Notes: generated from the letters alone by a model not told the origin. Positions 1-18,659 are shown, counted from the first letter of the stretch. The stretch is 64,000 nucleotides of DNA from Thermoproteota archaeon (GCA_029258885.1 JAPDJW010000003.1:98718-162717), one strand, 5' to 3'. Program-made: numbers and translations.

Positions 1-1228
1 GTACAAGCTTCTTAACCATGCTAACGATCTTGTTCCTCCAAAAGCCTGTATAAGGACACATCACAGCCATTGGGTGATCCATGAATCTATTATAGTGCTC
101 CTCATACAGTTCACCAGCAGAATTCTTAGTAGCATATTTATATGCCTTTTCATCTGTCCAGCTTTTACACGTTGTATCCCATAGTCTAGCATTAACGTAG
201 ATTATAGTTACGAAGCCCCTTTCACGTAGTTCCTTAACAGTTTCAATAAACTTATCCTCTCCATCTCTGGGAGGAAAGTATTCGGGGACGTTAACATCGT
301 AGGGATTTGAATGCCACCAGTGCCACATTAGACCTATTCTTCCGTAAGGGGCAAGGTGTCTAAATCTTATCGCTGGATCAGCGACTTTATCACATCTGCC
401 CCTATTCCAGATCCAACAAACAACTTCCTTAAGCCTCTCAGGAAAATCGTCTCTATTTATTATCTTGCCCCGCCTACACCACCACTGCTTTAAGCCCCAT
501 CTCCTATACTTATCCGCAGCATCCATCCAGTTGCCGTCAAAGGGCAGTATATGCATGCTATATGGAATCGTTAATAAGCTACTACCAATGCCTTCATCTG
601 GAGGAAAGTATGTAAAACACACACTCTTCCCTGAGGATATTCTTAGCTCCTTAACGTAGCCCTTGCTATCGTCAAGGAACGCTACTAATCCGCTTCTCCC
701 AATACTATAGCCGAAGAACTGCATTGATAGGGGAGACGGATACCTGTATTTTAAGTAGTGTTTCTTTAAGGTCTCCTGAGGCTTAAAGACTTCTATGCCT
801 TGATGATCAGGTATTATCAATGAGGCACTTAAACTATCGCTGTTTCCAAGATGGATAAAAGGATAAGATATTTCGCGTATCTCGAGACTGGGGGCTTTAG
901 TTACCATTAGCTTAAGCTTTACTCCTCCGTATTGGCTAGGGCTAAGGGAAGCTACTACCTCCTTGATTTCTTTAAATGGAAACTCTCTCCATTTTAAATA
1001 TACTATATCTCTCTCGTGTTCGCATGTAAAATATTCGGCGGATTTCGAATCTACGTCTTTTAGAGATTTTATCAGCCACAGCTCTTTTTCTTCGTCAATT
1101 CTAGATATAGTTACTTTCTTCTCTAGATCCTCTATAGCTCTAATGCATCCCCTATTACCTAGCTCAATACCTATTTTTCCGAACCTAAAAAATATATTAT
1201 TTGAATCTCTTTGAGCTGAATTTATCAA
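1..1228 (-). CDS. DUF6259-like putative glycoside hydrolase (partial, runs off left edge)
   Basis: Not in ORF track; manual translation gives an open frame from TTG 1228 (after GGAGG) with YRYPSPLSMQFFGY, FDGNWMDAADKYRRW, WHWWHSNPYDVNVPEYFPPRDG, YVNARLWD, AVMCPYTGFW. Confidence 0.7.
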   Translation of the reverse strand, partial: MINSAQRDSNNIFFRFGKIGIELGNRGCIRAIEDLEKKVTISRIDEEKELWLIKSLKDVDSKSAEYFTCEHERDIVYLKWREFPFKEIKEVVASLSPSQYGGVKLKLMVTKAPSLEIREISYPFIHLGNSDSLSASLIIPDHQGIEVFKPQETLKKHYLKYRYPSPLSMQFFGYSIGRSGLVAFLDDSKGYVKELRISSGKSVCFTYFPPDEGIGSSLLTIPYSMHILPFDGNWMDAADKYRRWGLKQWWCRRGKIINRDDFPERLKEVVCWIWNRGRCDKVADPAIRFRHLAPYGRIGLMWHWWHSNPYDVNVPEYFPPRDGEDKFIETVKELRERGFVTIIYVNARLWDTTCKSWTDEKAYKYATKNSAGELYEEHYNRFMDHPMAVMCPYTGFWRNKIVSMVKKLV

Positions 1229-4200
1229 TATATTCCCTCCTCATTTCAGGCTTTAGCGATCTCCAAACTAGAAGCTGCTTCCTAATGGCGTCTATAAAGT
1301 TCCTGCTTGATAACACCCACGTATCATATACTCCGCTAAGCCTTCTAAGCATAATATCTAGGAAGTGTCTATCCCCTCTCCTTATCACGGTTATAGTGGC
1401 CTTAGTTATTATCTTAGCCTCATAGGGGGCAAGCGATAAAACTATGTCAACTGAAGGAACCTCGGGATCGAACTTAACTTCCCTTATAATAAACTTCTCA
1501 ACGGTTTCCCTCTTATGAAGCTCGGCATATTCGTACAGGAATAGCAGTGCGCCGCCCGCCTCTAGGATGTTCGTGAATACGAATGGAAGAGGTATTTCCC
1601 ATTCATCGCCTCTTGGCTTTGTGGGGAGCTCCCACTTTCTAGCTAGGGATGGCGTTACAAGCCTAGCGGCCTTGTAAATCGGGTATATGGAGGGGATTAG
1701 GGTTGCTGCCATGGCGAAAATCATCGAGAAGAGCACGGCCATTGAGGTATAGTTTACTATGAATGTCTCTGGAAGTACGTTGAATGCCTTAAGTATGTGA
1801 TTGAAGAGTAGGCCTAGCGTGTATCCCACTAGCGTCGATATGAAGGCGAAAACTAATAACTCGCCTAAGAATAGGAAAATGACGCCGGACGGCGGAAGAC
1901 CTAAGGCTGAATAAATACTCATTTCCCTCTCCCTCATCTTGAGGACATTCAACATGCTGTTTAATATAGTGCCTGATCCGATCAGCAGAGGTATTAGTAT
2001 GAATGCAAGCCCCCTAAACTCGTAGGCCGGAAGCCTAGAGAACAGCGAGACCTTGCCATTATAGCTATAGTATACTTCAAGATCTAGGCTCATTGCGATA
2101 GTTCTGGCGATATCCTCTCCCTCCTCCTTCAGGTATATAGATATGCTCGATACATGTCCACCAAGTCTTTTAACTAAATTATGAGGAAGTATTAGTACTT
2201 CGCTAGCTGATAGGGGTACATAGCTATCGGATCCTCCGGGAACCGATTTCTTGAGGGTTGCAACCATGAGATTTGGATTAAATGGCATAATGCTCTCCTG
2301 ATCGAGATCCAGGTAGCTGTTAATTACATCTGATGCAACTATGCCTACAACCTTAAGCTTCATACCCTGCCACCACACCCAGTCTCCAACGCTCACGTTA
2401 AGTTTCTCGGATACCTTATCCGCCAGGATACATGCATAGTAGTCGTACTCATCGAAGCCCCTGCCCTCTACGATGCTTGACCTGAACAATTCATTATATT
2501 TAAATTCACCCGGTGAGAGGCCTAGGGCAGCATATATCACAGTTTTCTTATCTTTTGCTTCCAAATATGCAAACACCTGGTCTCCAAATACGGATTGAGG
2601 ATAGTACCACAGTCTTGGAGCTACCGCGCCTCTATCGCCTACCATCGACCTAAGGTATTCTATTATTGAGTAGCTTAGAAAGTCCTTAGTAGTCTTCATC
2701 CCCTTTCTCATGTATATTCCGTTATACCTGGCTTCTACTGGGAGTTCGGTGCGCTTTAGCGTTACGAAGCTTTCAATTGAGGTTAGTGAAACCATGCTTA
2801 AAACGATGATTATTATTGTTAAGAATAATAATATGCTCAGGAACTTTCTCCTCCTAATATTTCCCATTGCAACGTGTACCGAGTGGATTATTATTGACGT
2901 TCTCTCCCTCTCAACTACGTGATGTTTAAGTATCTTCCTTCTGATCATTGATCCCATTTCTATTGCAGACTTCGTTAACACGATACCGACTATTCCGAAG
3001 AAGAGAAGGGTCGATAGGCCAAGGTAGGCGATCGGTATATTTGCTACAAGCCTAAGGCTTGGATGAAGGAAATAAAATATCACCAGGATGAGTGATGCGA
3101 TAATTAGTATTGTAAAAAGCCTTTTAAGTCCTTCAAACTGGAGGGTTATTCTCTCTATAAAGAATACGGATGGTATTAGTAGGAAGAAGAAGAATACGCT
3201 TATAATTGCGGGTTCATTAACTAGCCTCATGACCTCACTATAGTATACCATCCCAAGGCTCCACGAGGCTAGGGCATAAGCATATGCTTTACTATATTTC
3301 CTTTCCTTCAGACTGGCTAGGCATAGGCTATGATACTCTTCCATGGCCTTTATGTTCTCCTCTAAAGCTATGTTCTCGATCATATTCTTCTTTAGGTTAG
3401 AGTATCTGGTTGAGATTATTGTGGCTATGTCGTTGGAGGCATTAATTGCTGAGAGTATTATCTCAGCGCCTCTCTGAACCTTATAGCCGTAGCCGTCTGG
3501 ATGAAGCTGTGACGAATTAATAAGAACTACTGAAGTTCTCTTTTCAGGTCCTACCTTCAATATAAGTGCAAACCTTGAACCCGGAGGCGTGAATATAGTC
3601 GCTATTCCCTCGCTGGGTACATAGACGAAGCCATACCTTATGAACTCGCTTAGGGTGGAGACATCGTATATCATAATCGTTGGAACCATATTTACCCATG
3701 GAGTATTAAGGAATCTAGAATCTAAAAGCACGGGCTCGGATATTCTGGATATATCGTAAAGATCAATGATTGTTGCCGAAGCGCAGGAGAAGACTACCGT
3801 TGTAAGCTGGTATGGATGTGAATCCACTAGACTCCAGAATAGTATTGATTTCGAGCCATACTGACCTAGATCGGGGGCCTTAACTATGAGGCCTGTATTC
3901 CCATCTAGAAGGTATGCTTCGGTATAATATCCTATACCTTCCTTCTGCAGTATTTGTACTCCGCCAGCTCCCCAAAGCACGGTCCCGCCTATGGCTGAGC
4001 CTACTCCTAGACCATGCACGACAAACCCGCCGGTTTCATTACATTTAACTATGATGTGCATGAAGGGGTATGTTGAGCTTGGACTCCTTGTAACCACTGC
4101 AAGGGCATATGGAACTCTGTCGTACCAGTTCTTAGTGTAATTAAATTCTAGTACCTTACCGTAGGCTGTTATAAACCCTGCTAGCTCGCCAGCCGGGCTA

Positions 4201-5648
4201 TAGAATATTCTACTGGGCTTAACCATGCTCCAGTCAACGGAGAATTCGGGATCGTTCACAAAGCCATAAATTATTGCCGATGAAGCTAATGCTTGAATCC
4301 TAATATTCTCAAGATTGACGTATTTGATATCGCTCTTAGGAGTACCCCATCTATGTCTCAGTGAACCGCAGGTTCTAAGTGCAAGCCCCATTCCATGGGC
4401 CATGGTAACGGGCTCTATATCCAGCATAAATGGCCCAGAGATATCATCCCACCATCCCTCAACCACTAAGCCGTTCTCCACTATACTCCCTAAATCTACG
4501 CCCAGCTGAGCCGATGCATCCTTAAGGTATTTATCGAAAACGTTTGGTATAACGTATTTCTGATACTTACTTAGAACTTGAACGCTACCATAATCGTAGA
4601 AGTATCCTCTATAAGTTAATAATAGCCTATTATTATCCGACGATAGATCCAAGCCTACTACTACAAGTAGCTTCCTCTCACCACTAATTATATCTTCAGA
4701 ACCAAAGATAGCTTTCTCCATAAACTCCCTTGCGCCAGCAAGTGCCTGCCAGTGTCCCGAAACGAATACTAACCATAAGGTTCTCAGTGGTCTATTTTTA
4801 GAGAAGTATTCAGCTAAAAGGAGGAGTAGTGAGGGCGAAGTAGCTTCGTCCGCCCCAGGAGCTATAGCTGGGACAACAGACCAAGTATCGTAGTGTGCAA
4901 TAACTGCTACTATCTCATCCTTCCTCTCACCCTCTATCTCCGCAACTATAATACTTGACTTTACAATTTCATAGTCCATGTTCACGTGTATCCTAATTAC
5001 CGAGTGATTTTCAGCTAACTGCTTAAGTAAAGCTCCTGTTTCACGATCAACATATAATCTGGGGAAGTACACGGGGGCTGAGGATATCTTAGCTATAGCC
5101 TCCGGATAGCTGGTTTCATCAGGCTCTATAAATATAACCCCCCTGGCGCCAAACCTTAGCAGGTTTATCCAATTCTTTCCAGAGTTGAATTCAATCAGGG
5201 CTATGGAACCATATATATCCTTGTCGTCCAAATCCTCTAAATCCCCATCCCCAACATAGACAAGCCGTCCCTCAATTCCGGTTGGAGGAGTTTTACATGT
5301 CTGAACGTAGTTAGGCCAAAGAGCATAGGCGTTAAGCCTTAGACTTACGGGTTCAATAACTTCTATGTAAGAGCTCCTGTCAAGCGGCACCGTAACCTCG
5401 TATTCAATGATCCTATAACTCACGTTTATTTCCTTAAGTCGACTTACTATGAAGTTAGCTGCATCATTGCATCCACTGTACCCCGTAACCCTTGAGCCAA
5501 AGCTGGATAGCTTCTCAATATATTCTTTTAGCTTATTTACGTCGATACTATTGGCTAAACCTTCATAATCCATGGGTGGTGTTGCCTTAACATATGCTTG
5601 TAGGGCAAGTAAAAGTATTAGTAGCATTAGAGCTATTCTTGCCTTCAT
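1197..5648 (-). CDS. M28-peptidase-like/PA domain fused to MacB/FtsX-like permease
   Basis: Signal peptide MKARIALMLL (ATG 5648, in frame with track ORF), AHYD...PGADE, PA insert GRLVYVGDG, central TM bundle, C-terminal FtsX motif REREMSIYSALGL. Confidence 0.8.
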   Translation of the reverse strand: MKARIALMLLILLLALQAYVKATPPMDYEGLANSIDVNKLKEYIEKLSSFGSRVTGYSGCNDAANFIVSRLKEINVSYRIIEYEVTVPLDRSSYIEVIEPVSLRLNAYALWPNYVQTCKTPPTGIEGRLVYVGDGDLEDLDDKDIYGSIALIEFNSGKNWINLLRFGARGVIFIEPDETSYPEAIAKISSAPVYFPRLYVDRETGALLKQLAENHSVIRIHVNMDYEIVKSSIIVAEIEGERKDEIVAVIAHYDTWSVVPAIAPGADEATSPSLLLLLAEYFSKNRPLRTLWLVFVSGHWQALAGAREFMEKAIFGSEDIISGERKLLVVVGLDLSSDNNRLLLTYRGYFYDYGSVQVLSKYQKYVIPNVFDKYLKDASAQLGVDLGSIVENGLVVEGWWDDISGPFMLDIEPVTMAHGMGLALRTCGSLRHRWGTPKSDIKYVNLENIRIQALASSAIIYGFVNDPEFSVDWSMVKPSRIFYSPAGELAGFITAYGKVLEFNYTKNWYDRVPYALAVVTRSPSSTYPFMHIIVKCNETGGFVVHGLGVGSAIGGTVLWGAGGVQILQKEGIGYYTEAYLLDGNTGLIVKAPDLGQYGSKSILFWSLVDSHPYQLTTVVFSCASATIIDLYDISRISEPVLLDSRFLNTPWVNMVPTIMIYDVSTLSEFIRYGFVYVPSEGIATIFTPPGSRFALILKVGPEKRTSVVLINSSQLHPDGYGYKVQRGAEIILSAINASNDIATIISTRYSNLKKNMIENIALEENIKAMEEYHSLCLASLKERKYSKAYAYALASWSLGMVYYSEVMRLVNEPAIISVFFFFLLIPSVFFIERITLQFEGLKRLFTILIIASLILVIFYFLHPSLRLVANIPIAYLGLSTLLFFGIVGIVLTKSAIEMGSMIRRKILKHHVVERERTSIIIHSVHVAMGNIRRRKFLSILLFLTIIIIVLSMVSLTSIESFVTLKRTELPVEARYNGIYMRKGMKTTKDFLSYSIIEYLRSMVGDRGAVAPRLWYYPQSVFGDQVFAYLEAKDKKTVIYAALGLSPGEFKYNELFRSSIVEGRGFDEYDYYACILADKVSEKLNVSVGDWVWWQGMKLKVVGIVASDVINSYLDLDQESIMPFNPNLMVATLKKSVPGGSDSYVPLSASEVLILPHNLVKRLGGHVSSISIYLKEEGEDIARTIAMSLDLEVYYSYNGKVSLFSRLPAYEFRGLAFILIPLLIGSGTILNSMLNVLKMREREMSIYSALGLPPSGVIFLFLGELLVFAFISTLVGYTLGLLFNHILKAFNVLPETFIVNYTSMAVLFSMIFAMAATLIPSIYPIYKAARLVTPSLARKWELPTKPRGDEWEIPLPFVFTNILEAGGALLFLYEYAELHKRETVEKFIIREVKFDPEVPSVDIVLSLAPYEAKIITKATITVIRRGDRHFLDIMLRRLSGVYDTWVLSSRNFIDAIRKQLLVWRSLKPEMRREYIDKFSSKRFK

Positions 5649-5704
5649 TGATCGACACCTGATATATTTATCTGAGAACATATTAATTTGTATGTTCATA
5701 ATCG

Positions 5705-7672
5705 TCACCAGGGAAGTATCCAGGTAGCCTTAGACAACATAACGATCGACGTGGCTATGCCCACTACGACTGCTTCGCCTGTAGCTACTCCAGCTACTAT
5801 AACGCCTCTATTCTTCCTCCACCAGTTCTCCCCGTACATTCTGGCCAGAAATCTGGCGATAATAGCGCCTATAATAAGACTTATCGAGTTTGCGGGCAGT
5901 ATATATGTCCCGGCGACGAGGCCGACTATGGAGAAGGGGAAGTTAAGGATTCTACTTAAAGTATCCCCGATAAACGCTACAGCTAACACCAGTATGAAGG
6001 AGTACAATATGGTGTCAACCTTCACTCCTATCTGTCTGCTAATCCACAACGCGCTTGTAGCTACGCTTACAGGCCACTGTATGTTCGTGAATGGGTATAG
6101 CGACGAGGGTATTGGAGCTATGCTCCAGAAGAAGGATACGTATATGAAGCTAAATACCGTATAGAGTACGACGGCCGTAAAATATGCCTTAAAGAAGTCC
6201 TCGGGCCTTGTCTCTGTTAGGAAGGCTGCCTTTATGGTGTTTCCCCATTGGGGCGAAGCTGTGAAAGGTAGGCCAAGCTGGGATACTGTCGGAGTTAAAC
6301 CGCTGAACATGGGGGAGAAGAGCCATGCATCCACCTTAGGATATCCTGAGCCAATTACGGCAAGCTGCCATATATAGGGTATCGATATCGGATAGCCTGA
6401 TTCAGCTATGCTTCTTGAAGCAACCAGCGAGTAGGTGAATCCTCCCCCTATAGCGATTAAGATCGCCAGCCATAGGGGGAAGTCGGGTACTATTAGATGA
6501 AACAGCAGTATTGATCCCAGAGATCCTGCTAAATAGAGCGTAGCTAGCGTTTTCAGACTTATATATCCCTTCCTTAAGACGTCAGTCCTAAGTCTGGATA
6601 GGCTCTTAAATGCCGATACAATGCTTCTTCTACTCTTAAATATTGAGAACACGGCTACCGCTAGTGCAAAGCCTATAAATGGAGTTATCCATACCCTGAG
6701 GAAGGATCTTTGGTAAACGGTTGATATGGTCATGCCTCTTGCCCATTCAATAGCCCATTCCTTAAAGTAATTAGCTAAGTAAGTTCTAGTTAGATAATTG
6801 CCGAAAACCCATACAGCTATTGATCCTATAAACATATAGACCACGGTGTGGAATGGAATTAAGAATGCTCCAGTAAATGTTAGAGGATCTGTTGCGAGGC
6901 CTAAGATAGCGCCCGGAAGGATATTTTCGATCCCAAAGGGGCCAGTAGTCAAATCGAGCCATGGAATTGGTATTACAACAATTCGGGTATTAAATAGACC
7001 TAACGAAATCGTCGGAACCCCATAGAGTATTATCGAATATATGGCGCCTAAAATAGCACTTGTTGTGAATATTCTCATCCTATCCTCCTCTCTCTCAGCT
7101 AATGTAATGCACATCTGGGCTGGAAACTCGGCAAAGGGATAGGGTAGCTTCTCTTCCTCTATGAAGATGTAGGCCATTATGTATGCTAACGCAACTTCCT
7201 GAATAAGCCATAAAAATATCTGAACCAAATATAGTGAGACTGGTATTATCCACTTTGAATTAAGAAAGCTTCTAACGGCTGTAGCTGGTAGTCTGGGAAC
7301 CCACCATTCAGGAATTACTTCACTTAGAGGTTTTCCAGAATAAGGATCGTAGAAGGACTTCGATATGGGCGAAGTGAAGAAGTAAAATCTATAGACGAAC
7401 TCTAAAAATGGAGCTCCTAAGAGAACTGGCGCTGCGGCCTGATATATTATGAATATCTCCTGCTTAGTTAGGGGCTTATCCATAAGCCTCGAAATTTCTG
7501 TAAAAAGTATTGCGGTTATGTATGTTATAGCGCTTGCTAGGATAGCACCTGAAGTAAGCTGAATATATATCGATACCGGGAGTAGGAGTGAAGCTGCAAC
7601 AAATATCGCAAGAAAAGATCTAAATGTATATCCTTTTTTTAAAACATATTCTTCACTCACATAATCACCCAT
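5705..7672 (-). CDS. OPT-superfamily-like peptide transporter
   Basis: 655 aa, many TM helices, EEEKLPYPFA motif, C-terminal AGVATGE. Confidence 0.7.
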   Translation of the reverse strand: MGDYVSEEYVLKKGYTFRSFLAIFVAASLLLPVSIYIQLTSGAILASAITYITAILFTEISRLMDKPLTKQEIFIIYQAAAPVLLGAPFLEFVYRFYFFTSPISKSFYDPYSGKPLSEVIPEWWVPRLPATAVRSFLNSKWIIPVSLYLVQIFLWLIQEVALAYIMAYIFIEEEKLPYPFAEFPAQMCITLAEREEDRMRIFTTSAILGAIYSIILYGVPTISLGLFNTRIVVIPIPWLDLTTGPFGIENILPGAILGLATDPLTFTGAFLIPFHTVVYMFIGSIAVWVFGNYLTRTYLANYFKEWAIEWARGMTISTVYQRSFLRVWITPFIGFALAVAVFSIFKSRRSIVSAFKSLSRLRTDVLRKGYISLKTLATLYLAGSLGSILLFHLIVPDFPLWLAILIAIGGGFTYSLVASRSIAESGYPISIPYIWQLAVIGSGYPKVDAWLFSPMFSGLTPTVSQLGLPFTASPQWGNTIKAAFLTETRPEDFFKAYFTAVVLYTVFSFIYVSFFWSIAPIPSSLYPFTNIQWPVSVATSALWISRQIGVKVDTILYSFILVLAVAFIGDTLSRILNFPFSIVGLVAGTYILPANSISLIIGAIIARFLARMYGENWWRKNRGVIVAGVATGEAVVVGIATSIVMLSKATWILPW

Positions 7673-7719
7673 TTACTACATAAAAATAAAAAGAAGGAGG
7701 GTTTGATATCTTTAGCTAT

Positions 7720-9732
7720 CTACATGAGCTTAGGCAGACCTATCATGAATGTTGCTAGGAACGCTACTAGGGAGGCGTTTACTCCGTAGCCTACTAGGTA
7801 TCCGATTATAAACGGTGTAGCCTTCTCTTCAAACAGTTTTGATCCTCCAATTCTAAGTATTATATATTTGATTATTAGTGAGAATATTGGCGGTATCCAA
7901 ACCCATGTTGTAGTTGGTAATATTAGGAATGCCAATGGATCTATGAAGAACCACGCAAACTTTGTCCTAAGGAAGTAGAGTATGAAGGTAATTATTATTC
8001 CGCCTATCATTAGACCATATCTCTCAGCCGGATCGAATGCTAATATTGTTGGAGTCCCCTTAACCCATGAATATACTTCAGGCGATACCCACATATAGAA
8101 GGGTGGGCCTGGGGGTCCATTGTTAGCTAAACCTCCGATTGCGTGGTACCACCATATAACTAGCGGTGTAGTTATGATTGCAGCGGATATAATGGTTATC
8201 ACTGCGGTGAAGAATAAGTCTCTTCCAAGAGTGTTTGTTGTGGGGCCGAGCCTATATATCTTAAACTGGTGGTGCATTGTAAGGTTGCTTATTCTCTGCC
8301 CGGTGTTAGCTGCACCAGTTACTAAGGTGAATGTAACTAATGCCGTCTGGTTTTCAGCTGGTGGAACTGGAGGCCATGCACCCATTATTGCGCCAGCATC
8401 ATATCTAAACCAGTTAAAGGCATGCCCATAGGGCATGAACTCGAAAGATACTCCCATAAGCCTTGTCCATCCATATAGCATTAGTATGTGGAGTATCATG
8501 AATACAAGTACTACTAGGAATGGAACACCGCTACCTAGTAAGAATATTAGGAACAATATTGATATAGCTACTGTGCCGACTGATAGCAGCCTATATGATA
8601 AGCCGCTGTCCTCCATTTTAGCATACTCCTTATCCCATAAGGCCCTAAGTATATTCAGGAAGTGTTCCCTGTGGTTATAGACGACCCACAGACCTACGCC
8701 GAGACCTATACCCCAGATACAGAATAGGTGCCACTTAAATGGACCATATCTTAAACCATAGTACGCGGCATTTGTCTCTACGCCCGGGCTATAGGGTAGT
8801 ATTCCCGTGGTAACTCCTACTACTGGATATAGCACTGCGAATATAAACCAGCCTATAATAATTGTTATCAAGAAGTCAGTTGGCGTAAACATCCATATTA
8901 GAATGTCAGTAACTCTAACGTTTCCATAGAAGAAGGCTCCCGGAAGTATACCCTTAGTATAGGGAGTTAAGTCGATTGTGTAAACGCCCAGATAGGCGGA
9001 AGAAGGTACGGTAGGTATGAAGTATCTTAGGGTATCTAAGAAGGTCATTAGGAATCCGAGCACGAAAGCAACCCAGAATATCTTAGTAGCCGTATTCTTA
9101 AAGTTAAATAGCCAAACCTTACCGTCAACCTCCTTAGTAGCATATTCTATTAGGTAGACGCCTGGAAGTATGCCGGGGAACGGAAGCTGCTCAACCTCTA
9201 TCAGCGGTTTTCTAAGCCAGTATCCCCAGAATGTCTCGAACAACATGTAGAGTATAAGGAATAGAGTCCAGTAGATTATATGTGGCATCCATGCGCCCCA
9301 GTCCAGGTATCCGCCATTCCAGAAGTTTTCTAATGCAGTGCCGCTTGGAGAGAAGTATGGTGGTATCATATCCCATACATCCTTAAATGCCTCAGTATGC
9401 CTCATATAAACTGGAATAAGCTGAGCCCAACTGGGTATCTGGCAGGTGCTATAGGCGCCTGACATATATACTCCATATGTGAATGTGTTAGCTACCAGGA
9501 AGAAGAGGGCGAAGAGTATAGCGTACTCTTGAGGAGCTAGTTTAATCTTATTCCTCAGTAGGTAGAGTATCACTATTACGACTATGAAGGGTGGAGGGAA
9601 CCATACCCTATAAGCCCACCATAGTGTAAGCGATGAGTTAATAATTGACTGGAAGAAGTTTAGTAGTACGACAATGGGTATCAGTACAATTATCCATGGT
9701 TTAAGATAACTCCTTCTAACTTCCTCTCCCAT
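7720..9732 (-). CDS. DUF6785/DUF6784-type OPT-like membrane protein
   Basis: Multi-TM, DWGAWMP, EVEQLPFP, LRTKFAWFFIDPL, ILRIGGSKLFEEKATPFIIG; ATG 9732 chosen over TTG 9744. Confidence 0.65.
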   Translation of the reverse strand: MGEEVRRSYLKPWIIVLIPIVVLLNFFQSIINSSLTLWWAYRVWFPPPFIVVIVILYLLRNKIKLAPQEYAILFALFFLVANTFTYGVYMSGAYSTCQIPSWAQLIPVYMRHTEAFKDVWDMIPPYFSPSGTALENFWNGGYLDWGAWMPHIIYWTLFLILYMLFETFWGYWLRKPLIEVEQLPFPGILPGVYLIEYATKEVDGKVWLFNFKNTATKIFWVAFVLGFLMTFLDTLRYFIPTVPSSAYLGVYTIDLTPYTKGILPGAFFYGNVRVTDILIWMFTPTDFLITIIIGWFIFAVLYPVVGVTTGILPYSPGVETNAAYYGLRYGPFKWHLFCIWGIGLGVGLWVVYNHREHFLNILRALWDKEYAKMEDSGLSYRLLSVGTVAISILFLIFLLGSGVPFLVVLVFMILHILMLYGWTRLMGVSFEFMPYGHAFNWFRYDAGAIMGAWPPVPPAENQTALVTFTLVTGAANTGQRISNLTMHHQFKIYRLGPTTNTLGRDLFFTAVITIISAAIITTPLVIWWYHAIGGLANNGPPGPPFYMWVSPEVYSWVKGTPTILAFDPAERYGLMIGGIIITFILYFLRTKFAWFFIDPLAFLILPTTTWVWIPPIFSLIIKYIILRIGGSKLFEEKATPFIIGYLVGYGVNASLVAFLATFMIGLPKLM

Positions 9733-9902
9733 AAGAAACACCAATGTAAAATAAAATTTTAAGTATTTAAGTTTGGATATTTTTATTAATCAAAAAATTT
9801 TTTTAAAATTTAAAAATATTTATATTCAAGAAAATAATATAAAATATGGTTTTAAATTTGCTTTAGAATAAAGATTTAGCATTAACTTGGAATTCTATTA
9901 TT

Positions 9903-10013
9903 GAGAAGCACTACGGGATAGATAAGGGGAAGGATTTCAGGCTTCAGGAAGGAAGATCGCCTTGAGGACAGAGGATGACGTTGTAGTGGATACATATGCA
10001 TGGATAGAGTTTT
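9903..10013 (+). pseudogene. Remnant of a vapB-vapC junction
   Basis: EKHYGIDKGK-(frameshift)-SGFRKEDRLEDRG* overlapping MRTEDDVVVDTYAWIEF; resembles MFGVDKGRLKPFSARDRMEDRL / MILDTYAWVEYF at 55706-56304. Confidence 0.7.
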
Positions 10014-10153
10014 CAGTATGTAGTATATCGATATTGTTACTCTATAATTATGAATGCTAGGATTCGCTAACATTTGGTCCAGAGTCCTTGACTATTATAT
10101 CAATGACCTTAGAGTTATATTCAGCTTTACGTCTATAGCTATCGGTGGAGTGT

Positions 10154-10588
10154 ATGGAGTCTGATAAAACCTTTGAAGCTATTGCTCATCCATTAAGGAT
10201 AAAGATATTGAAGTTGCTGGCAGAGAGACCTATGAGTTTCTCCGAGTTAAAGAGGAGGCTTGGAATAAAGAGTAGCGGTAAGCTGGATTTCCACTTGAAG
10301 AAACTAGACAACTTAATAGTTTTAGATGAAGATGGAAAATACACGTTGACTAGAGAGGGCTATGCGGCACTACAGGCTATTATCACAATTAAAAGGTATG
10401 GATGGCAGAAGAGAGCCTTCATATTAAATACAGCAGTCTACATTGCGGTTATGATCTATACAGAGTGTGTTATAGTGTGGAGAGGATTTAGCCCGCTATA
10501 CGTTGCTGTAATGGTGCTTACATCACTCTGGTACGTATACTACTTCTATGTATCTATTGTGAAGAGGAAGGTCTTTAAAGTATGTTAG
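10154..10588 (+). CDS. ArsR-family wHTH regulator with two C-terminal TM helices
   Basis: FEAIAHPLRIKILKLL...LDFHLKKL followed by hydrophobic segments. Confidence 0.85.
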   Translation: MESDKTFEAIAHPLRIKILKLLAERPMSFSELKRRLGIKSSGKLDFHLKKLDNLIVLDEDGKYTLTREGYAALQAIITIKRYGWQKRAFILNTAVYIAVMIYTECVIVWRGFSPLYVAVMVLTSLWYVYYFYVSIVKRKVFKVC

Positions 10589-10629: not shown

Positions 10630-11556
10630 ATGGGGATGAGGGTTATTGAGGTTGAAAATTTAGCTAAAGAGTTCAATGGGAGAACAGTGCTACGTGGGAT
10701 AACTTTCCACGTTAGGAGGGGTGAGGTCTTTGGTCTACTTGGACCTAATGGTTCGGGTAAAACAACGACGATGAGGATAATTCTTGGATTGCTTAAGCCG
10801 ACTTCGGGGAAGGTACGTGTTCTCGGCGGTTCGCTGGCGGACGACGCCAAGCTTAGGAGTAGAGTCGGCGTAGTGTTGGAGGGTGATGGCTTGTTTACTA
10901 GACTTTCAGCCTATGAAAATCTCGACTTTTACGCTAGAATCTACGGGTTAAGGGACGGTGTGGAGAGAAGAGAGAGGATTAGGGAGCTACTGGAGCTCGT
11001 AGGCTTATATGATGTGAGAAATATGAAGGTGGGTTATTTTTCCAAGGGTATGAGGAGGAGGCTTGCGCTAGCTAGAGCACTAATTCACTATCCTGAAGTA
11101 TTGCTTCTCGATGAGCCGACTTCTGGTTTAGACCCTGAGGCGAAGGCTATGGTAAGGGATCTGGTGATCAAGCTCTCTAGGGGTGATGGAGTAACAGTTC
11201 TCTATACATCCCATGACCTGAATGAGGTTGAAAAAGTATGCTCTAGGATAGCAGTGCTAGTGAAAGGTAGGATAATAGTTCAAGGTGTGCTTAACGACCT
11301 ACTTGAGGAATGTAGCGGACAGGTAATGGAGGTATGTTTCACTAGTAGTGATGATGCGTCTAAAGCTTTCGAGTACTTGAGGATGTTGGACTATGTACCA
11401 GAATGCAGGATGTATGGGAAAACTGTGCATCTGGTAACACTTGGCAATACACGCAGGCTTCTAAGAGACCTTGTGGAAATGAACCTTGGAGTTGAGGAGG
11501 TAAGGAGGGTAAGGAGGACTCTCGAGGAGATATATCTAGAGCTTGTTAGGAGGTGA
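10630..11556 (+). CDS. ABC exporter ATP-binding protein (DrrA-like)
   Basis: Walker A GPNGSGKT, FSKGM signature, LLLDEPT. Confidence 0.95.
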   Translation: MGMRVIEVENLAKEFNGRTVLRGITFHVRRGEVFGLLGPNGSGKTTTMRIILGLLKPTSGKVRVLGGSLADDAKLRSRVGVVLEGDGLFTRLSAYENLDFYARIYGLRDGVERRERIRELLELVGLYDVRNMKVGYFSKGMRRRLALARALIHYPEVLLLDEPTSGLDPEAKAMVRDLVIKLSRGDGVTVLYTSHDLNEVEKVCSRIAVLVKGRIIVQGVLNDLLEECSGQVMEVCFTSSDDASKAFEYLRMLDYVPECRMYGKTVHLVTLGNTRRLLRDLVEMNLGVEEVRRVRRTLEEIYLELVRR

Positions 11557-16744: not shown

Positions 16745-16857
16745 GGTAAATAAATTTAGCTTAAGGTAATAAGTTTACTGAAGTATAGTTATTGAAAATA
16801 AAGCATCAAGTTTCTCGACCTTTAATTTTATAATAGTAATTTTACATATTGTTATTG

Positions 16858-17826
16858 ATGGAAATTGACATATCGTTATATCCAGATAAAGACGTATACT
16901 ATCCTGGAGAAGATATAGAAGCAGTTTTCAGCGTTCGAGGATTATCTGGGGAAAATGTGGAGGCTATTGAAGTGGGTTTTATTGGAAGGGAGATTATAAA
17001 GATCGGTGAAACTATTGGAAGAAGTAGACTAACCGACGAGAGGAGGAATACCATAGCAAACTATAGATACGCTCACAGACCACAGCACATCGATGAGCTG
17101 GAGCGTAGATACAGGTTTACGATACCTGAGAACTCCCCGCCATCAATCCACCTAGCCAGCTCCGCCTTTCTAAGCTCCAGCTCCATTAAGGTAGATTATG
17201 AGCTCTACGTGGATATTAGGAGGCGTCTAAGGCCAGATTACCGTAAATCTAAGAATATAATAGTCGGTCTTAAGCCTCAATTTAAGGATTATGGAGGCCA
17301 GCCGCCATCTTTAAAGTTTAATGGCGAGAACATAGACTTCTATATGGAGCTTAGCAGAGAAACCGTATATCCGGGGGATAACGTAAGGCTATTTCTGAAA
17401 TCCAGAAGACTCCTTAAAGTTAGGAAGATTAGGGTTGGAATAAGGAGCTATGCATGGGGGCTATGCGAGAAATACGGGGTAAAAATGCCGGTTTTCTCCT
17501 ATCCCCTCCTGGAGTTGAGGCCAAGCGATATACCTCAATATGGAAGAGATCTCGATATAACGATACCCGATGGGGTCCCGCCCACCTATAAAAGTAGATA
17601 CTGGTGGACTTGGACGGAAATAGTCTTTGAGTTCCGAGGCATCGTAAGGGAAATTCTGAAGTTGAGTAGGGAGATTCCGGTGAACTATAAGTATTTGAGG
17701 CCTAGGAAAATAATGCGCTATATCACGTGCCCATGGTGTAGTAGAAGTGTTCCTGAAGATAGCCTAAGGTGTCCATTCTGTAACTATAATTTAGCGGGAA
17801 TCCGTAGGCGTAAGGTCCAGAGCTAG
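16858..17826 (+). CDS. Arrestin-fold (SpoOM/arrestin N+C-like) protein with C-terminal zinc ribbon
   Basis: Two repeats YYPGEDI..FTIPENSPPS..VDYEL and VYPGDNV..ITIPDGVPPTY; CPWC...CPFC. Confidence 0.65.
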   Translation: MEIDISLYPDKDVYYPGEDIEAVFSVRGLSGENVEAIEVGFIGREIIKIGETIGRSRLTDERRNTIANYRYAHRPQHIDELERRYRFTIPENSPPSIHLASSAFLSSSSIKVDYELYVDIRRRLRPDYRKSKNIIVGLKPQFKDYGGQPPSLKFNGENIDFYMELSRETVYPGDNVRLFLKSRRLLKVRKIRVGIRSYAWGLCEKYGVKMPVFSYPLLELRPSDIPQYGRDLDITIPDGVPPTYKSRYWWTWTEIVFEFRGIVREILKLSREIPVNYKYLRPRKIMRYITCPWCSRSVPEDSLRCPFCNYNLAGIRRRKVQS

Positions 17827-17915: not shown

Positions 17916-18659
17916 TTGATACTGCAGCTAAAACTGATTTCAGGTTATATGAGTGAACTAGAGCGTAAGGAAAGCTATAGGGGAATTGAGAGGCTTGTAC
18001 AGCTTATAATACAATCTATACTTGACTTAGGTCTAATGATTCTTTCCATAGTTGGATGTGAAACGGATATAGTCTATAAGGATATAGGGAGGAAGCTTAG
18101 GGAGAGAGGTTTTATTGACAAGGAGGATGAATCCTTTCTCATCGATGCGGCCGGGATGAGAAATGTACTGGTTCATGGATACTTTAGGATAGATAGGGAC
18201 ATTATTTTAAATACCGCCAGAAGGGAGCTTCCAAAGTTCGTTCCTAGGTTCATAGAGAAGATTAAGCCTAAAATAGATAGCTTAAGTGTAGAATCTAGGG
18301 AATATGCCGTCCTCGGGAGTATCTTTAGAAGGAATGGGGTTAAGCTAGCATTCCTATTCGGCGGGAGAGCATTGGGATATAAAATTAGGGGAGGTTATGA
18401 TTTCGCAATATACTATGAAAGGAAATATAGCTTTAGGGATGTAGGTAGAATAGCCGTAGAAATATCCGATAAAATGAATGTTCCACTTGAGAAAATCGAT
18501 ATACTTGTCCTTGATAACGCGGATCCCGAGACGGCATTAAAGGCAGCCATGGGTATTCCAATATATTGGGATGACGAATACGAGCTATTCGAATACAGGT
18601 ATAGATGCCTGAGAGAGGCGCTGGATCTAAGAGTAAGCAGGAGCTTAATTAACACCTAG
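17916..18659 (+). CDS. HEPN (DUF86) - minimal nucleotidyltransferase fusion, probably degenerate
   Basis: RNVLVHGY (Rx4HxY); LFGGRALG...GYDFA (degenerate GS/DxD). Confidence 0.8.
   Translation: MILQLKLISGYMSELERKESYRGIERLVQLIIQSILDLGLMILSIVGCETDIVYKDIGRKLRERGFIDKEDESFLIDAAGMRNVLVHGYFRIDRDIILNTARRELPKFVPRFIEKIKPKIDSLSVESREYAVLGSIFRRNGVKLAFLFGGRALGYKIRGGYDFAIYYERKYSFRDVGRIAVEISDKMNVPLEKIDILVLDNADPETALKAAMGIPIYWDDEYELFEYRYRCLREALDLRVSRSLINT

Follow-up and report, generated by a model that had tools for sequence, protein, structure and literature searches.

A recurrent membrane module of a MacB-fold giant protein and two OPT-superfamily carriers as a candidate uptake system of Thermoproteota archaea

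All characterised ABC systems of type VII (MacB-type) export or extract their substrates, signal, or transmit force outward, and no type VII system is known to import or to partner a secondary carrier. Transferrin receptor and nicalin are non-catalytic M28 proteins. OPT carriers (TC 2.A.67; symporters of oligopeptides and metal chelates) are polytopic, with roughly 12–17 TM segments, and are classically known for oligopeptides and for proton-coupled uptake. In PMC3061005, prokaryotic OPT proteins are mostly predicted to be peptide porters, and uptake of xylo-oligosaccharides is predicted, from genome context, for an OPT subcluster of Bacteroides.

Here, we describe a gene cluster from the 2.1-Mb Thermofilales MAG of a heat-loving archaeon, located at the left end of a 64,000-nucleotide stretch of DNA (hereafter, the window), where proteins resembling these systems are encoded side by side.

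The gene cluster and its four proteins

The preliminary description had placed four tightly coupled minus-strand genes at positions 1–9744, which is confirmed by the ORFs, their junctions, and Pfam matches exceeding the curated cut-offs for all four proteins. The genes encode carrier B of the OPT superfamily, with DUF6785 and DUF6784 (7720–9744, minus strand; 674 aa as an ORF, although translation probably begins at codon 5, an ATG at position 9732); carrier A of the OPT family, PF03169 (5705–7672, minus strand; 655 aa); a giant protein combining M28/PA, MacB_PCD, and FtsX parts (1197–5708, minus strand; an ORF of 1503 aa); and a glycoside hydrolase (GH)-like DUF6259 protein (1–1228, minus strand), the gene of which runs off the window edge, so that only the N-terminal 409 aa lie in the window, and continues leftward to window position −844 (−844 to 1228), with the full length of 690 aa. 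The gap between the DUF6785 and OPT genes is 47 nt. The OPT stop overlaps the GTG start of the giant by 4 nt; with Met21 (position 5648), the likely start and the point at which the Atlas record begins, the two genes would be approximately 56 nt apart. In turn, the 3′ end of the giant gene overlaps the TTG start of the DUF6259 gene by 32 nt, and GGAGG is found upstream of this TTG.

The AT-rich divergent intergenic region at 9745–10144, as read from the sequence, carries a putative archaeal promoter upstream of the operon. It is followed on the plus strand by a divergent ArsR/DUF7347 winged-helix regulator (10145–10588), whose membership in the system is uncertain; possibly, it is part of the ABC-2 system that follows. 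The latter comprises a divergent ABC ATPase (10630–11556) and a 224-aa ORF with about six TM segments, matching ABC2_membrane_2 below the threshold (E 4.2e-4, 20.1 bits vs. the cut-off of 27.2). The ATPase at 10630 was considered as a partner of the cluster and rejected, as the next ORF resembles its own ABC-2-type permease; it had been described as having such a permease, and, given the sub-threshold match, the pair indeed looks like a separate ABC-2-type system. No ATPase was found within the four-gene cluster, in agreement with the preliminary description.

The giant starts with a signal/anchor segment (residues 25–43) and an ectodomain (residues 44–832) that contains an M28-like region (4494–4949, minus strand; residues 254–405) preceded by a PA-like insert. 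Then come three extra TM helices (residues 833–911), the MacB-type TM1 (residues 957–975), the extracytoplasmic PCD (residues 976–1230; MacB periplasmic-core-like domain at 2262–2825, minus strand, residues 962–1149), and TM2–4 (residues 1231–1341), the FtsX domain (1662–2006, minus strand; residues 1235–1349) carrying a conserved E-R-x-R-E coupling-helix motif. The last 154 aa form a family-specific cytoplasmic C-terminal domain (1200–1661, minus strand; residues 1350–1503). The Pfam matches are to M28 (E 1.6e-09, 38.2 bits vs. the cut-off of 21.3), MacB_PCD (E 5e-07, 30.6 bits), and FtsX (E 2e-12, 47.7 bits), and the AF2 model of residues 824–1503 (pLDDT 84.9) is matched in Foldseek by MacB, LolCDE, HrtBA, and YbbAP, including 5gko, 5lil, 5nik, and LolCDE structures (best E 1.1e-11, MacB). 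Like MacB, LolCDE, and FtsEX, the giant has a four-helix FtsX TM domain in which TM1 and TM2 are separated by a large extracytoplasmic domain, and it retains the E-R-x-R-E-I coupling-helix motif. Unlike them, it lacks a fused or adjacent ATPase, has an additional N-terminal ectodomain of 790 aa, three extra TM helices, and the family-specific C-terminal domain, and is paired with two OPT-type carriers in a context that points to import.

In a PDB sequence search, the head best matched a PA-containing aminopeptidase, 2ek8 (E 9.5e-24), with transferrin receptor and nicalin matching as well; the M28 profile match ends at about residue 405. The canonical M28 residues are those of the AAP/SGAP literature and were read off the alignment with 2ek8. 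Glu is present at the Glu–Glu catalytic pair in none of the 41 giants, which instead have His or Tyr followed by Trp, Tyr, or His (His–Trp in the window's giant), and the first Zn-ligand His is retained in 25 giants out of 41 and missing in 16. An active aminopeptidase head was rejected, since the catalytic pair is lost. The M28 fold with a PA insert is a likeness to transferrin receptor, nicalin, and glutamate carboxypeptidase II, and with the first two the giant also shares the loss of catalytic residues, so that the head would be a binding scaffold; in contrast to these proteins, it is archaeal and fused to a MacB-type membrane domain. As judged from profiles and the structural model, the giant is a MacB-fold permease with a non-catalytic M28 head; its earlier designation as a pseudo-M28 and MacB/FtsX protein is borne out by Pfam, Foldseek, and the absent Glu–Glu pair.

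The C-terminal domain had no standout structural relative in the VIA or Foldseek comparisons: the best VIA Z-scores were 8.6 (BamC-N) and 8.3 (KA1), with Bet v 1/START/Aha1/TBP-like folds at about 7–8, all within the tool's stated background, and the best Foldseek E was 9.5e-4. For this reason only a general name is given to the modelled fold, which appears to be of the alpha+beta helix-grip/KA1/BamC-N-like kind and not a nucleotide-binding/P-loop one. This signature domain of the giants is carried by 1,337 clusters at 50% identity, which makes the family a large one; a contig search with the giant sequence alone found no relative.

Carrier A matches the Pfam OPT profile (E 8.1e-12, 45 bits vs. 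the cut-off of 25.8) over positions 120–615 out of 623, and its paralogues in the source genome cover up to 16–621 of 623; carrier B matches DUF6785 (E 5.7e-15, 55.3 bits) and DUF6784 (E 4.9e-10, 39.9 bits). An hhalign comparison aligns the OPT-like family with the DUF6785-like one over 605 columns (probability 100, E 7.6e-42), a homology that upholds the assignment of both proteins of about 650 aa to the OPT superfamily. A crude hydropathy scan finds approximately 13 hydrophobic segments in each carrier, and a PDB sequence search with the OPT-like profile detected no meaningful solved structure. The likeness to OPT carriers, which are also about 650 aa long, lies in the PF03169 match for carrier A and in profile-level homology for carrier B; the differences are that the archaeal proteins, two diverged paralogues, occur as an obligatory pair beside a MacB-like partner, and that the substrates of the triad are probably glycans.

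The DUF6259 protein matches its Pfam family with E 1.8e-55 for the window part and E 8.4e-98 (327.6 bits, positions 2–300 of 300) at full length, at which it also shows a weak GHL6 similarity below the cut-off (E 8.8e-4). A PDB sequence search gave no meaningful relative, and no TM segment or signal peptide was found, hence the protein is predicted to be cytoplasmic.

Conservation of the module and its catabolic neighbours

The source genome encodes eight giants, each adjoining an OPT-like and a DUF6785-like gene and thus forming eight triads (in one of these cassettes the DUF6785-like gene was recognised by BLAST only), whereas the DUF6259 gene is unique in this genome. In relatives from seven families, OPT stands beside the giant in 19 out of 20 loci and DUF6785 as well in 17 out of 20, with gene order and strand shuffled; in other families of the phylum, the full triad occurs in nine out of 14 loci, again in shuffled order. 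The giant family reaches 8–16 copies per 2-Mb genome. With dozens of loci carrying this gene set, the cluster lies far beyond chance. The conserved unit comprises three genes, the giant and two carriers, not four. Hence, of the four-part system proposed earlier, the three membrane genes stand as a strongly syntenic unit, and the DUF6259 protein, with its putative GH-like role, appears from its sequence to be a locus-specific cytoplasmic accessory outside it. The triad proteins have also diverged together (Mantel r 0.86, 0.92, and 0.89 over 32 cassettes, reached by none of 2000 permutations), including the eight paralogues of the source genome alone (r 0.80, 0.64, and 0.63, reached by 14, 9, and 26 of 2000 permutations, respectively).

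NCBIfam gave no match for carrier A, carrier B, and the DUF6259 protein, and only sub-threshold matches (ADOP and MacB) for the giant. No description of the triad was found in the literature, judged mostly on titles and the beginnings of abstracts; the same search found no paper on DUF6785, DUF6784, or DUF6259, and none relevant on FtsX with M28 in archaea. Consistent with the initial view of the cluster as uncharacterised, it matches no characterised transporter found in NCBIfam or the literature, and the three-protein membrane module seems to be undescribed so far.

Glycan enzymes are found beside six out of eight cassettes in the source genome. The neighbours are GH130 with TrmB; GH57 with a maltose-forming-amylase-like protein; the Leloir genes GalK/GalT/GalE with PfkB; DUF6259 in the window; and, for two cassettes, a MurNAc/peptidoglycan island in which they lie (Amidase_2, AnmK, MurQ-like SIS, NamZ, GH3, and BadF kinase). 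In the relatives, glycan genes (GH5, GH9, GH4, GH57, GH36-like, apiosidase-like, AXE1, BNR, sugar isomerases, and kinases) occur in nine out of 20 loci and peptidases only in two out of 20, and in a distant, complete genome the cassette adjoins GH57. The neighbours of some cassettes are peptidases only, or include nothing catabolic. Several of the neighbouring enzymes are of cytoplasmic types and therefore need an importer, although the triads are not required to explain sugar uptake as such, because the source genome also has four to five conventional binding-protein-dependent sugar ABC importers. Overall, the genomic company is overwhelmingly that of glycan or muropeptide catabolism, in line with the link to glycans suggested at the outset.

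The loci look like an archaeal counterpart of the polysaccharide utilisation loci (PULs) of Bacteroidota (SusC/SusD). By analogy, a membrane uptake unit would be multiplied within a genome, with each copy beside the enzymes and regulators for one glycan; the archaeal triad differs in belonging to other protein families and in having no outer membrane or SusC/SusD homology, and no Pfam families of SusC-like TonB-dependent transporters or SusD-like lipoproteins were seen among roughly 190 neighbours scanned.

Peptide scavenging, in which the M28 head would either trim extracellular peptides as an active aminopeptidase or capture them by binding, and the OPT carriers would import them, agrees with the carriers' known oligopeptide substrates, with the peptidase-associated nature of the M28 and PA folds, with the glycopeptide nature of muropeptides, and with the M1, S58/TldD, S49, and C25-like or C39-like peptidases adjoining some cassettes. 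Prokaryotic OPTs are also mostly predicted to be peptide porters in PMC3061005. Given that none of the 41 giants has the Glu–Glu pair and 16 of them lack the first Zn-ligand His, and that the most informative neighbours are glycan enzymes (six out of eight in the source genome, nine vs. two loci in the relatives), we regard this explanation as unlikely.

Regulators of the TrmB, AsnC, or ArsR type are found near several cassettes and differ from locus to locus. They could fit a sensor role, with a BceAB-like or transferrin-receptor-like giant reporting substrate or flux and regulating the adjacent catabolic genes with no translocation: BceAB-type FtsX permeases, among the fold matches of the giant, are flux sensors, and the conserved helix-grip/KA1-like cytoplasmic domain might provide the output through signalling or lipid binding. 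This role seems quite unlikely, as the module contains no kinase or conserved regulator, and eight sensors of 1,500 aa would be costly for a 2.1-Mb genome.

The orphan ATPase and the mini-FtsX protein

As an integral part of the cluster, an ABC ATPase is absent from all eight cassettes of the source genome and from the 20 and 14 cassettes of other genomes. The source genome, in turn, has one orphan ATPase of 246 aa, single-copy, with intact catalytic motifs and no TM neighbour, whose best NCBIfam matches are LolD, MacB NBD, DevA, YbbA, and FtsE. Its orthologues (at least 78% identity) are present in 22 out of 25 giant-bearing relatives vs. none of 15 giant-free ones. Across the phylum sample, 41 out of 41 giant-bearing vs. 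six out of 109 giant-free genomes have the ATPase, and 39 out of 41 vs. five out of 109 have a mini-FtsX protein of 220 aa, though these genomes are related, so that the counts overstate independence. The presence of the giant and the ATPase agrees, in the same genomes, within single families as well (one out of five in f13, four out of five in f26, three out of four in f36). In a distant genome, G086, the mini-FtsX gene and two ATPase genes directly adjoin a triad.

The orphan ATPase gene is accompanied by THUMP, CGI-121, and ABCE1-like genes in 16 out of 16 loci, and it is missing from the THUMP/ABCE1-like slot in five out of five giant-free genomes checked; this constant company could reflect an alternative, translation-related role. 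The predicted complex of the giant (residues 905–1503) with the ATPase scored 0.50, a weak support, vs. 0.00 for the best control; the mark for this score was passed by 58 out of 80 solved complexes and two out of 110 mismatched pairs, with seven of the 80 solved complexes and both passing mismatches at 0.60 or under. The runs agreed in at least 48% of contacts, with the partner pLDDT of at least 77, and the score may merely reflect likeness, as MacB and LolCDE complexes have been solved. The earlier statement on the ATPase holds in that the cluster encodes none, but a cognate one probably exists, encoded elsewhere and shared by the giants.

Should the triad form no complex, it would consist of three independent membrane proteins kept by operon inheritance, and the correlation with the ATPase and mini-FtsX would stem from shared ancestry. 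The relatedness of the compared genomes fits this explanation, as do two loci of one family (L131 and L139) where the giant occurs with neither OPT nor DUF6785 genes; still, we find it very unlikely, as adjacency is kept despite reshuffled gene order and strand, co-divergence is seen among paralogues of one genome and so cannot stem from species history, and the giant and ATPase agree in presence inside single families (f13, f26, and f36).

An envelope-remodelling or export machine is rather unlikely as well. The giants would then act like FtsEX, LolCDE, or MacB, extracting, exporting, or activating at the surface, e.g., tethering or activating extracellular hydrolases or contributing to S-layer/glycan turnover, and the OPT-like proteins would be importers or flippases linked to them by co-regulation only. 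In favour of this, each type VII ABC system characterised so far serves in export, extraction, or outward force transmission, the fold of the giant matches MacB, LolCDE, and HrtBA, a LolD/FtsE-like ATPase co-occurs with the giants, and coiled-coil proteins recalling MacA-type adaptors adjoin three out of eight source-genome cassettes and that of G086. At the same time, the neighbours are catabolic (hydrolases, phosphorylases, kinases, MurQ, and AnmK) and not glycosyltransferases or secretion substrates, and the giant–carrier co-divergence is hard to explain by co-regulation alone.

A proposed uptake mechanism and its implications

On balance, we lean towards interpreting the triad as a substrate-specific uptake module for oligomers, with a giant receptor, an OPT pair, and a shared engine; we infer a physical complex, the direction of transport, the substrates, and the coupling to ATP. 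The giant would be a membrane-anchored receptor whose 790-residue ectodomain binds the substrate outside the cell on the dead M28/PA scaffold, and whose MacB-type (type VII ABC) TM stalk transmits the conformational change. The two paralogous OPT-superfamily proteins, probably a heterodimer, would form the translocation pathway, driven by the proton-motive force as in OPT carriers. Imported oligomers would come from the breakdown of polymers and may be oligosaccharides, muropeptides, or glycopeptides, or else peptides for a smaller number of copies, with each diverged copy of the triad adjoining cytoplasmic enzymes that would finish one kind of oligomer, the window's enzyme being DUF6259. A single-copy engine, most likely the 220-aa mini-FtsX with one or two LolD/MacB-type ATPases, would serve all giants in trans. 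Conceptually, this resembles TRAP/TTT transporters, whose secondary carriers, driven by protons or ions, depend on a binding component outside the cytoplasm. There is no homology, and the triad has as its receptor a polytopic membrane protein of 1,500 aa with the ABC type VII fold, which ATP may drive.

We more tentatively suggest, as a possibility, a hybrid primary/secondary uptake machine unique to Thermoproteota archaea, in which a shared ATP engine (mini-FtsX and two LolD-like ATPases) would power many MacB-like giants, interchangeable and each specific for its substrate, whose pseudo-peptidase claws would capture oligosaccharides or muropeptides and pass them on to an OPT-type heterodimer of their own. 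If true, this machine would be the PUL equivalent of archaea, would give type VII ABC mechanotransmission its first role in import, and would be the first case of an ABC-type machine obligatorily partnered with secondary carriers.

How polymer fragments are taken up by the uncultured heterotrophic archaea that live in sediments and hot springs, such as Thermofilales, Bathyarchaeia-type lineages, and Korarchaeia-like genomes, is little understood, and their giant “hypothetical” membrane proteins mostly go unnoticed. Two cassettes flank the peptidoglycan-recycling island, which suggests that archaea feed on bacterial cell walls. If the triad is an uptake system, it would widen the repertoires of MacB/FtsX and the OPT superfamily, offer specific proteins for work on structure and transport, and make it possible to deduce from the genomes of these archaea which substrates they prefer, in the way PULs do for Bacteroidota.

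The gene cluster and its proteins

The preliminary description saw four minus-strand genes filling positions 1-9744, and this is borne out by open reading frames (ORFs) with Pfam matches above the cut-offs, all on the minus strand: DUF6785 and DUF6784 (7720-9744), OPT (5705-7672), M28, MacB_PCD and FtsX in a single 1503-aa protein (1197-5708; hereafter, the giant), and DUF6259 (2-1228 in the window, extending 844 bases past its left edge). The successive junctions are a 47-nt spacer, a 4-nt overlap, and a 32-nt overlap, and the complete DUF6259 gene encodes 690 aa with a full-length domain match (E 8.4e-98). A 987-aa FtsX protein is encoded immediately outside the left edge of the window (window -3804..-841; L002:10914-13877), convergently to DUF6259. 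Right of the cluster and divergent from it are genes for an ArsR/DUF7347 regulator and an ABC ATPase, the latter with a 224-aa ORF downstream that has about six TM helices and matches ABC2_membrane_2 under the Pfam cut-off (E 4.2e-4). The genome (G000; 2.10 Mb, 26 contigs) is 99.9% complete, and the nearest matches of its EF-1alpha (68-79% identity) are from MAGs assigned to Thermofilaceae, Thermofilales, Thermoproteales, or Thermoprotei. The presence of reverse gyrase in relatives marks these organisms as thermophiles, and near-identical DNA is present in hydrothermal-vent and sediment metagenome runs.

Elsewhere in the window, a HepT-like RNase domain and a Polbeta nucleotidyltransferase (MNT) domain share a single 247-aa ORF (17916-18659, plus strand), so that HepT and MNT form one fused toxin-antitoxin-like gene. 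A 325-aa protein (16849-17826, plus strand) joins arrestin N/C-like domains to a UPF0547 zinc-ribbon at its C-terminus, which is unusual in an archaeon. Other large ORFs encode 1421 aa (56401-60666, minus strand) and 986 aa (23930-26890, plus strand).

The identification of two OPT-like carriers in the cluster was correct, since homology between the OPT-like and the DUF6785-like protein extends along their entire length (hhalign: 605 columns, probability 100, E 7.6e-42). The layout of the giant was derived from a hydropathy scan and from AF2 modelling of residues 824-1503 (pLDDT 84.9): the protein begins with a signal/anchor and a 790-aa ectodomain, continues with three extra TM helices and a MacB-type unit (TM1, an extracytoplasmic core domain, and TM2-4), and ends in a cytoplasmic C-terminal domain of 154 aa. 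This model resembles MacB, LolCDE, HrtBA, YbbAP, and BceAB, with a lowest Foldseek E of 1.1e-11 and with low TM-scores due to differing domain orientations. The C-terminal domain was modelled confidently (pLDDT 93.4) as an alpha+beta helix-grip/KA1/BamC-N-like fold; this is not a nucleotide-binding fold, and no relative stood out in a structure search.

The head of the giant aligns best with the PA-containing aminopeptidase 2ek8 (E 9.5e-24), and also with transferrin receptor and nicalin, both of them non-catalytic M28 proteins. The canonical residues are those of the M28 literature, and their positions were taken off the 2ek8 alignment. None of 41 giants retains either the catalytic Glu or the neighbouring zinc-ligand Glu, these being replaced by H/Y and then W/Y/H, and only 25 of the 41 keep the first histidine ligand, supporting the earlier notion of a pseudo-M28 head.

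The DUF6259 protein is predicted to be cytoplasmic, since a sequence scan revealed neither a hydrophobic segment nor a signal peptide. None of its 114 relatives (E <=1e-10) has a functional name, and those named by organism are mostly from Bacteroidota (30-34% identity), with few archaeal ones; thus, bacteria may be the source of this accessory gene.

The triad as a repeated unit

The cluster had initially been regarded as a four-gene unit, possibly an envelope complex. DUF6259 occurs once in the genome, and the conserved unit is the triad, or cassette, of the giant, the OPT-like, and the DUF6785-like genes, which is indeed syntenic in relatives. All eight full-length giants of this genome (1472-1524 aa) adjoin both carrier genes. 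Of 41 genomes from the order, this one included, 33 have giant matches, mostly many per genome. Among 20 loci from 18 relatives of seven families, an OPT-like gene adjoins the giant in 19 (the sole exception, L026, is an 8-kb contig) and a DUF6785-like gene belongs to the cluster in 17, with gene order and strand varying between loci.

Beyond the order, 150 other genomes from across the phylum were sampled; a profile of the C-terminal domain identified giants in 41 of them (about ten further families) and in none of 16 same-class genomes of two families (f9 and f10). Fourteen loci from those other families comprise nine full triads, two partial ones, two with the giant alone (both from one family), and one distant 1,794-aa type. 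Among 1.84 billion representatives, the same profile matched 1,337 clusters (E <=1e-10), and the matched domain was always C-terminal in proteins of ~1,430-1,570 aa, fragments excepted; DUF6785 clusters of the ESM Atlas are 75-92% archaeal, mostly from Bathyarchaeota or Thermoproteota.

Distances between giants, OPT-like, and DUF6785-like proteins of the same cassettes are strongly correlated (r 0.86, 0.92, and 0.89 for 32 complete cassettes; reached in none of 2000 permutations). For the eight paralogous cassettes of this genome the correlations are 0.80, 0.64, and 0.63 (14, 9, and 26 of 2000 permutations, respectively, gave values as high) and do not stem from species history, as all of them come from one genome. 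Thus, the three genes are duplicated and diverge together, in the manner expected of the subunits of a specific complex. This is indirect evidence for a complex and speaks against the rival view that there is none at all.

Several further proteins were observed near triads. Mutually related proteins of 370-610 aa, which end in a coiled coil and may be adaptor-like components, adjoin three of the eight triads of this genome (L015:5448-8571; L016:2063-3274; L021:4156-6591) and the triad of G086, a complete 1.58-Mb genome from another class (L127, 608 aa). Two cassettes also have ~640-aa membrane proteins with no Pfam match (L015:1569-3488, L016:3299-5242). A distant giant type of ~1,800 aa (FtsX and M28, some with LysM; L140 in G181:C36 and Atlas clusters of 1823-1863 aa) has a weakly related C-terminal domain and, in the single locus seen (L140), no OPT or DUF6785 neighbours.

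A candidate ATPase encoded apart from the cassettes

No ABC ATPase is encoded within the cassettes of this genome, its relatives, or other families. The genome encodes about 45 ABC ATPase domains and 19 FtsX proteins above the family cut-off. Five of the latter are small (220-397 aa), each with an adjoining ATPase, one of these being broken by stop codons; the 14 large ones, the eight giants and six others of 957-1355 aa, have none. These six, the one just left of the window and those at G000:C2:100259, C2:160361, C3:31831, C1:267266, and C14:11239, lack an M28 head; some have CarboxypepD_reg-like N-termini, and one adjoins an M1 peptidase.

A candidate partner is an orphan 246-aa ATPase with no membrane-protein neighbour (G000:C2:342686-343423, L042), whose best matches are LolD, MacB NBD, DarD, DevA, YbbA, and FtsE, every one under the equivalog cut-off. 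Its Walker A, Walker B, and signature motifs and its H-loop are all preserved, without variation across 15 orthologues. Within the order, orthologues (78-90% identity) are present in 22 of 25 giant-bearing relatives and none of 15 giant-free ones, the three misses being G010 (84% complete), G019 (83% complete), and G037 (giant fragments only). Across the phylum sample, LolD-like ATPases of this type (E <=1e-85, 64-74% identity, usually two per genome) occur in 41 of 41 giant-bearing and six of 109 giant-free genomes. All co-occurrence counts in this section overstate independence, as the compared genomes are related. The orphan ATPase is more conserved across the order than EF-1alpha (77-89% vs. 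68-79% identity), as expected of a subunit obliged to fit many partners.

The ATPase is surrounded by CGI-121, THUMP, eIF-1A, and NMD3 genes; given this housekeeping context, it may instead have a translation-related role. All 16 loci show an ABCE1-like gene, then the ATPase, THUMP, and mostly CGI-121, and never a TM neighbour; five of five giant-free genomes (three genera) retain the THUMP slot and lack the ATPase gene.

A second ATPase paralogue adjoins the gene of a 220-aa single-copy protein, mini-FtsX, which consists of an FtsX domain alone and lacks the extracytoplasmic domain (G000:C2:376302-377675, L162). Mini-FtsX is found in 39 of 41 giant-bearing and five of 109 giant-free genomes (E <=1e-25). 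In G086, a 35% identical mini-FtsX and both ATPases are encoded directly beside a divergently transcribed cluster of GH57, OPT, DUF6785, giant, and coiled-coil genes.

Complex prediction for residues 905-1503 of the giant with the orphan ATPase weakly supports an interaction (score 0.50 vs. 0.00 for the best control; contact agreement between runs at least 48%, partner pLDDT at least 77), and this score may reflect likeness only, as MacB and LolCDE complexes are already solved. Of 80 solved complexes 58 attained the mark, as did two of 110 mismatched pairs; those attaining it with a score of at most 0.60 were only seven of the 80 and both passing mismatches. That a shared engine of mini-FtsX and the LolD-like ATPase drives the giants is a possibility we hold tentatively, at somewhat less than even chances.

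Neighbouring genes and a possible role in uptake

Besides DUF6259, the neighbours of cassettes in this genome include GH130 with a TrmB regulator; an AsnC-type regulator with an amylase-C-like piece; GalK, GalT, GalE, PfkB, and SIS; GH57 with a maltose-forming-amylase-like protein; and a C25-like peptidase. In the relatives (90 of 101 unassigned neighbouring ORFs of at least 170 aa scanned), carbohydrate genes adjoin nine of 20 cassettes, represented by GH5, GH9, GH4, GH57, GH36-like, apiosidase-like, AXE1, BNR, sugar isomerases, and kinases; peptidases alone adjoin two, and the remainder are uninformative. Neighbours in other families include GH57, BNR, TrmB, and sugar oxidoreductases.

Many of these enzymes are cytoplasmic, and their substrates, oligomers and sugar derivatives, need prior import, which is the main argument for uptake. 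We thus lean slightly towards the triad being a substrate-specific importer, one route among several, since the genome also encodes ordinary binding-protein-dependent sugar ABC importers. Rival explanations are peptide scavenging, on which the two peptidase-only cassettes and the C25-like neighbour bear, an export or envelope-remodelling machine, and a sensor.

As an importer, the triad would bind an oligomer outside the cell by the pseudo-M28/PA ectodomain of the giant, whose MacB-type stalk would couple binding to the membrane; the two OPT-type paralogues would form a pmf-driven pathway, and the common mini-FtsX and LolD-like ATPase engine may power the giants, which might heterodimerise with mini-FtsX, by analogy with LolC and LolE.

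All parts of the triad come from known superfamilies (OPT, type VII ABC permease, M28/PA). However, the giant lacks the fused or adjacent ATPase of the MacB family, and its head lacks the catalytic residues of M28; triad loci have no SusC/SusD, so that the likeness to PULs, as that to TRAP transporters, is by analogy only. Gomolplitinant and Saier (2011, PMC3061005) describe prokaryotic OPT homologues as uncharacterised as of that date and predict from genome context that one bacterial OPT subcluster takes up xylo-oligosaccharides. Judged by titles and abstract starts, the literature searched contains no mention of DUF6785, DUF6784, or DUF6259 and no description of an FtsX-M28 archaeal protein or of the triad. 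The system matches no described one, and its proposed function is predicted from comparative genomics.

Two triads flank a peptidoglycan/MurNAc catabolic island (G000:C1:188000-223000; L017, L018) with Amidase_2, AnmK, MurQ-like SIS, NamZ exo-muramidase, GH3, and BadF-type kinase genes, as well as GHL10, a C39-like peptidase, and an Orn/DAP decarboxylase. A second set, near a triad of another family (L031 in G013; counted among the nine carbohydrate-linked cassettes), comprises a beta-lactamase-fold protein, a kinase, a MurQ-like protein, and Amidase_2. These sets suggest archaea feeding on bacterial cell walls.
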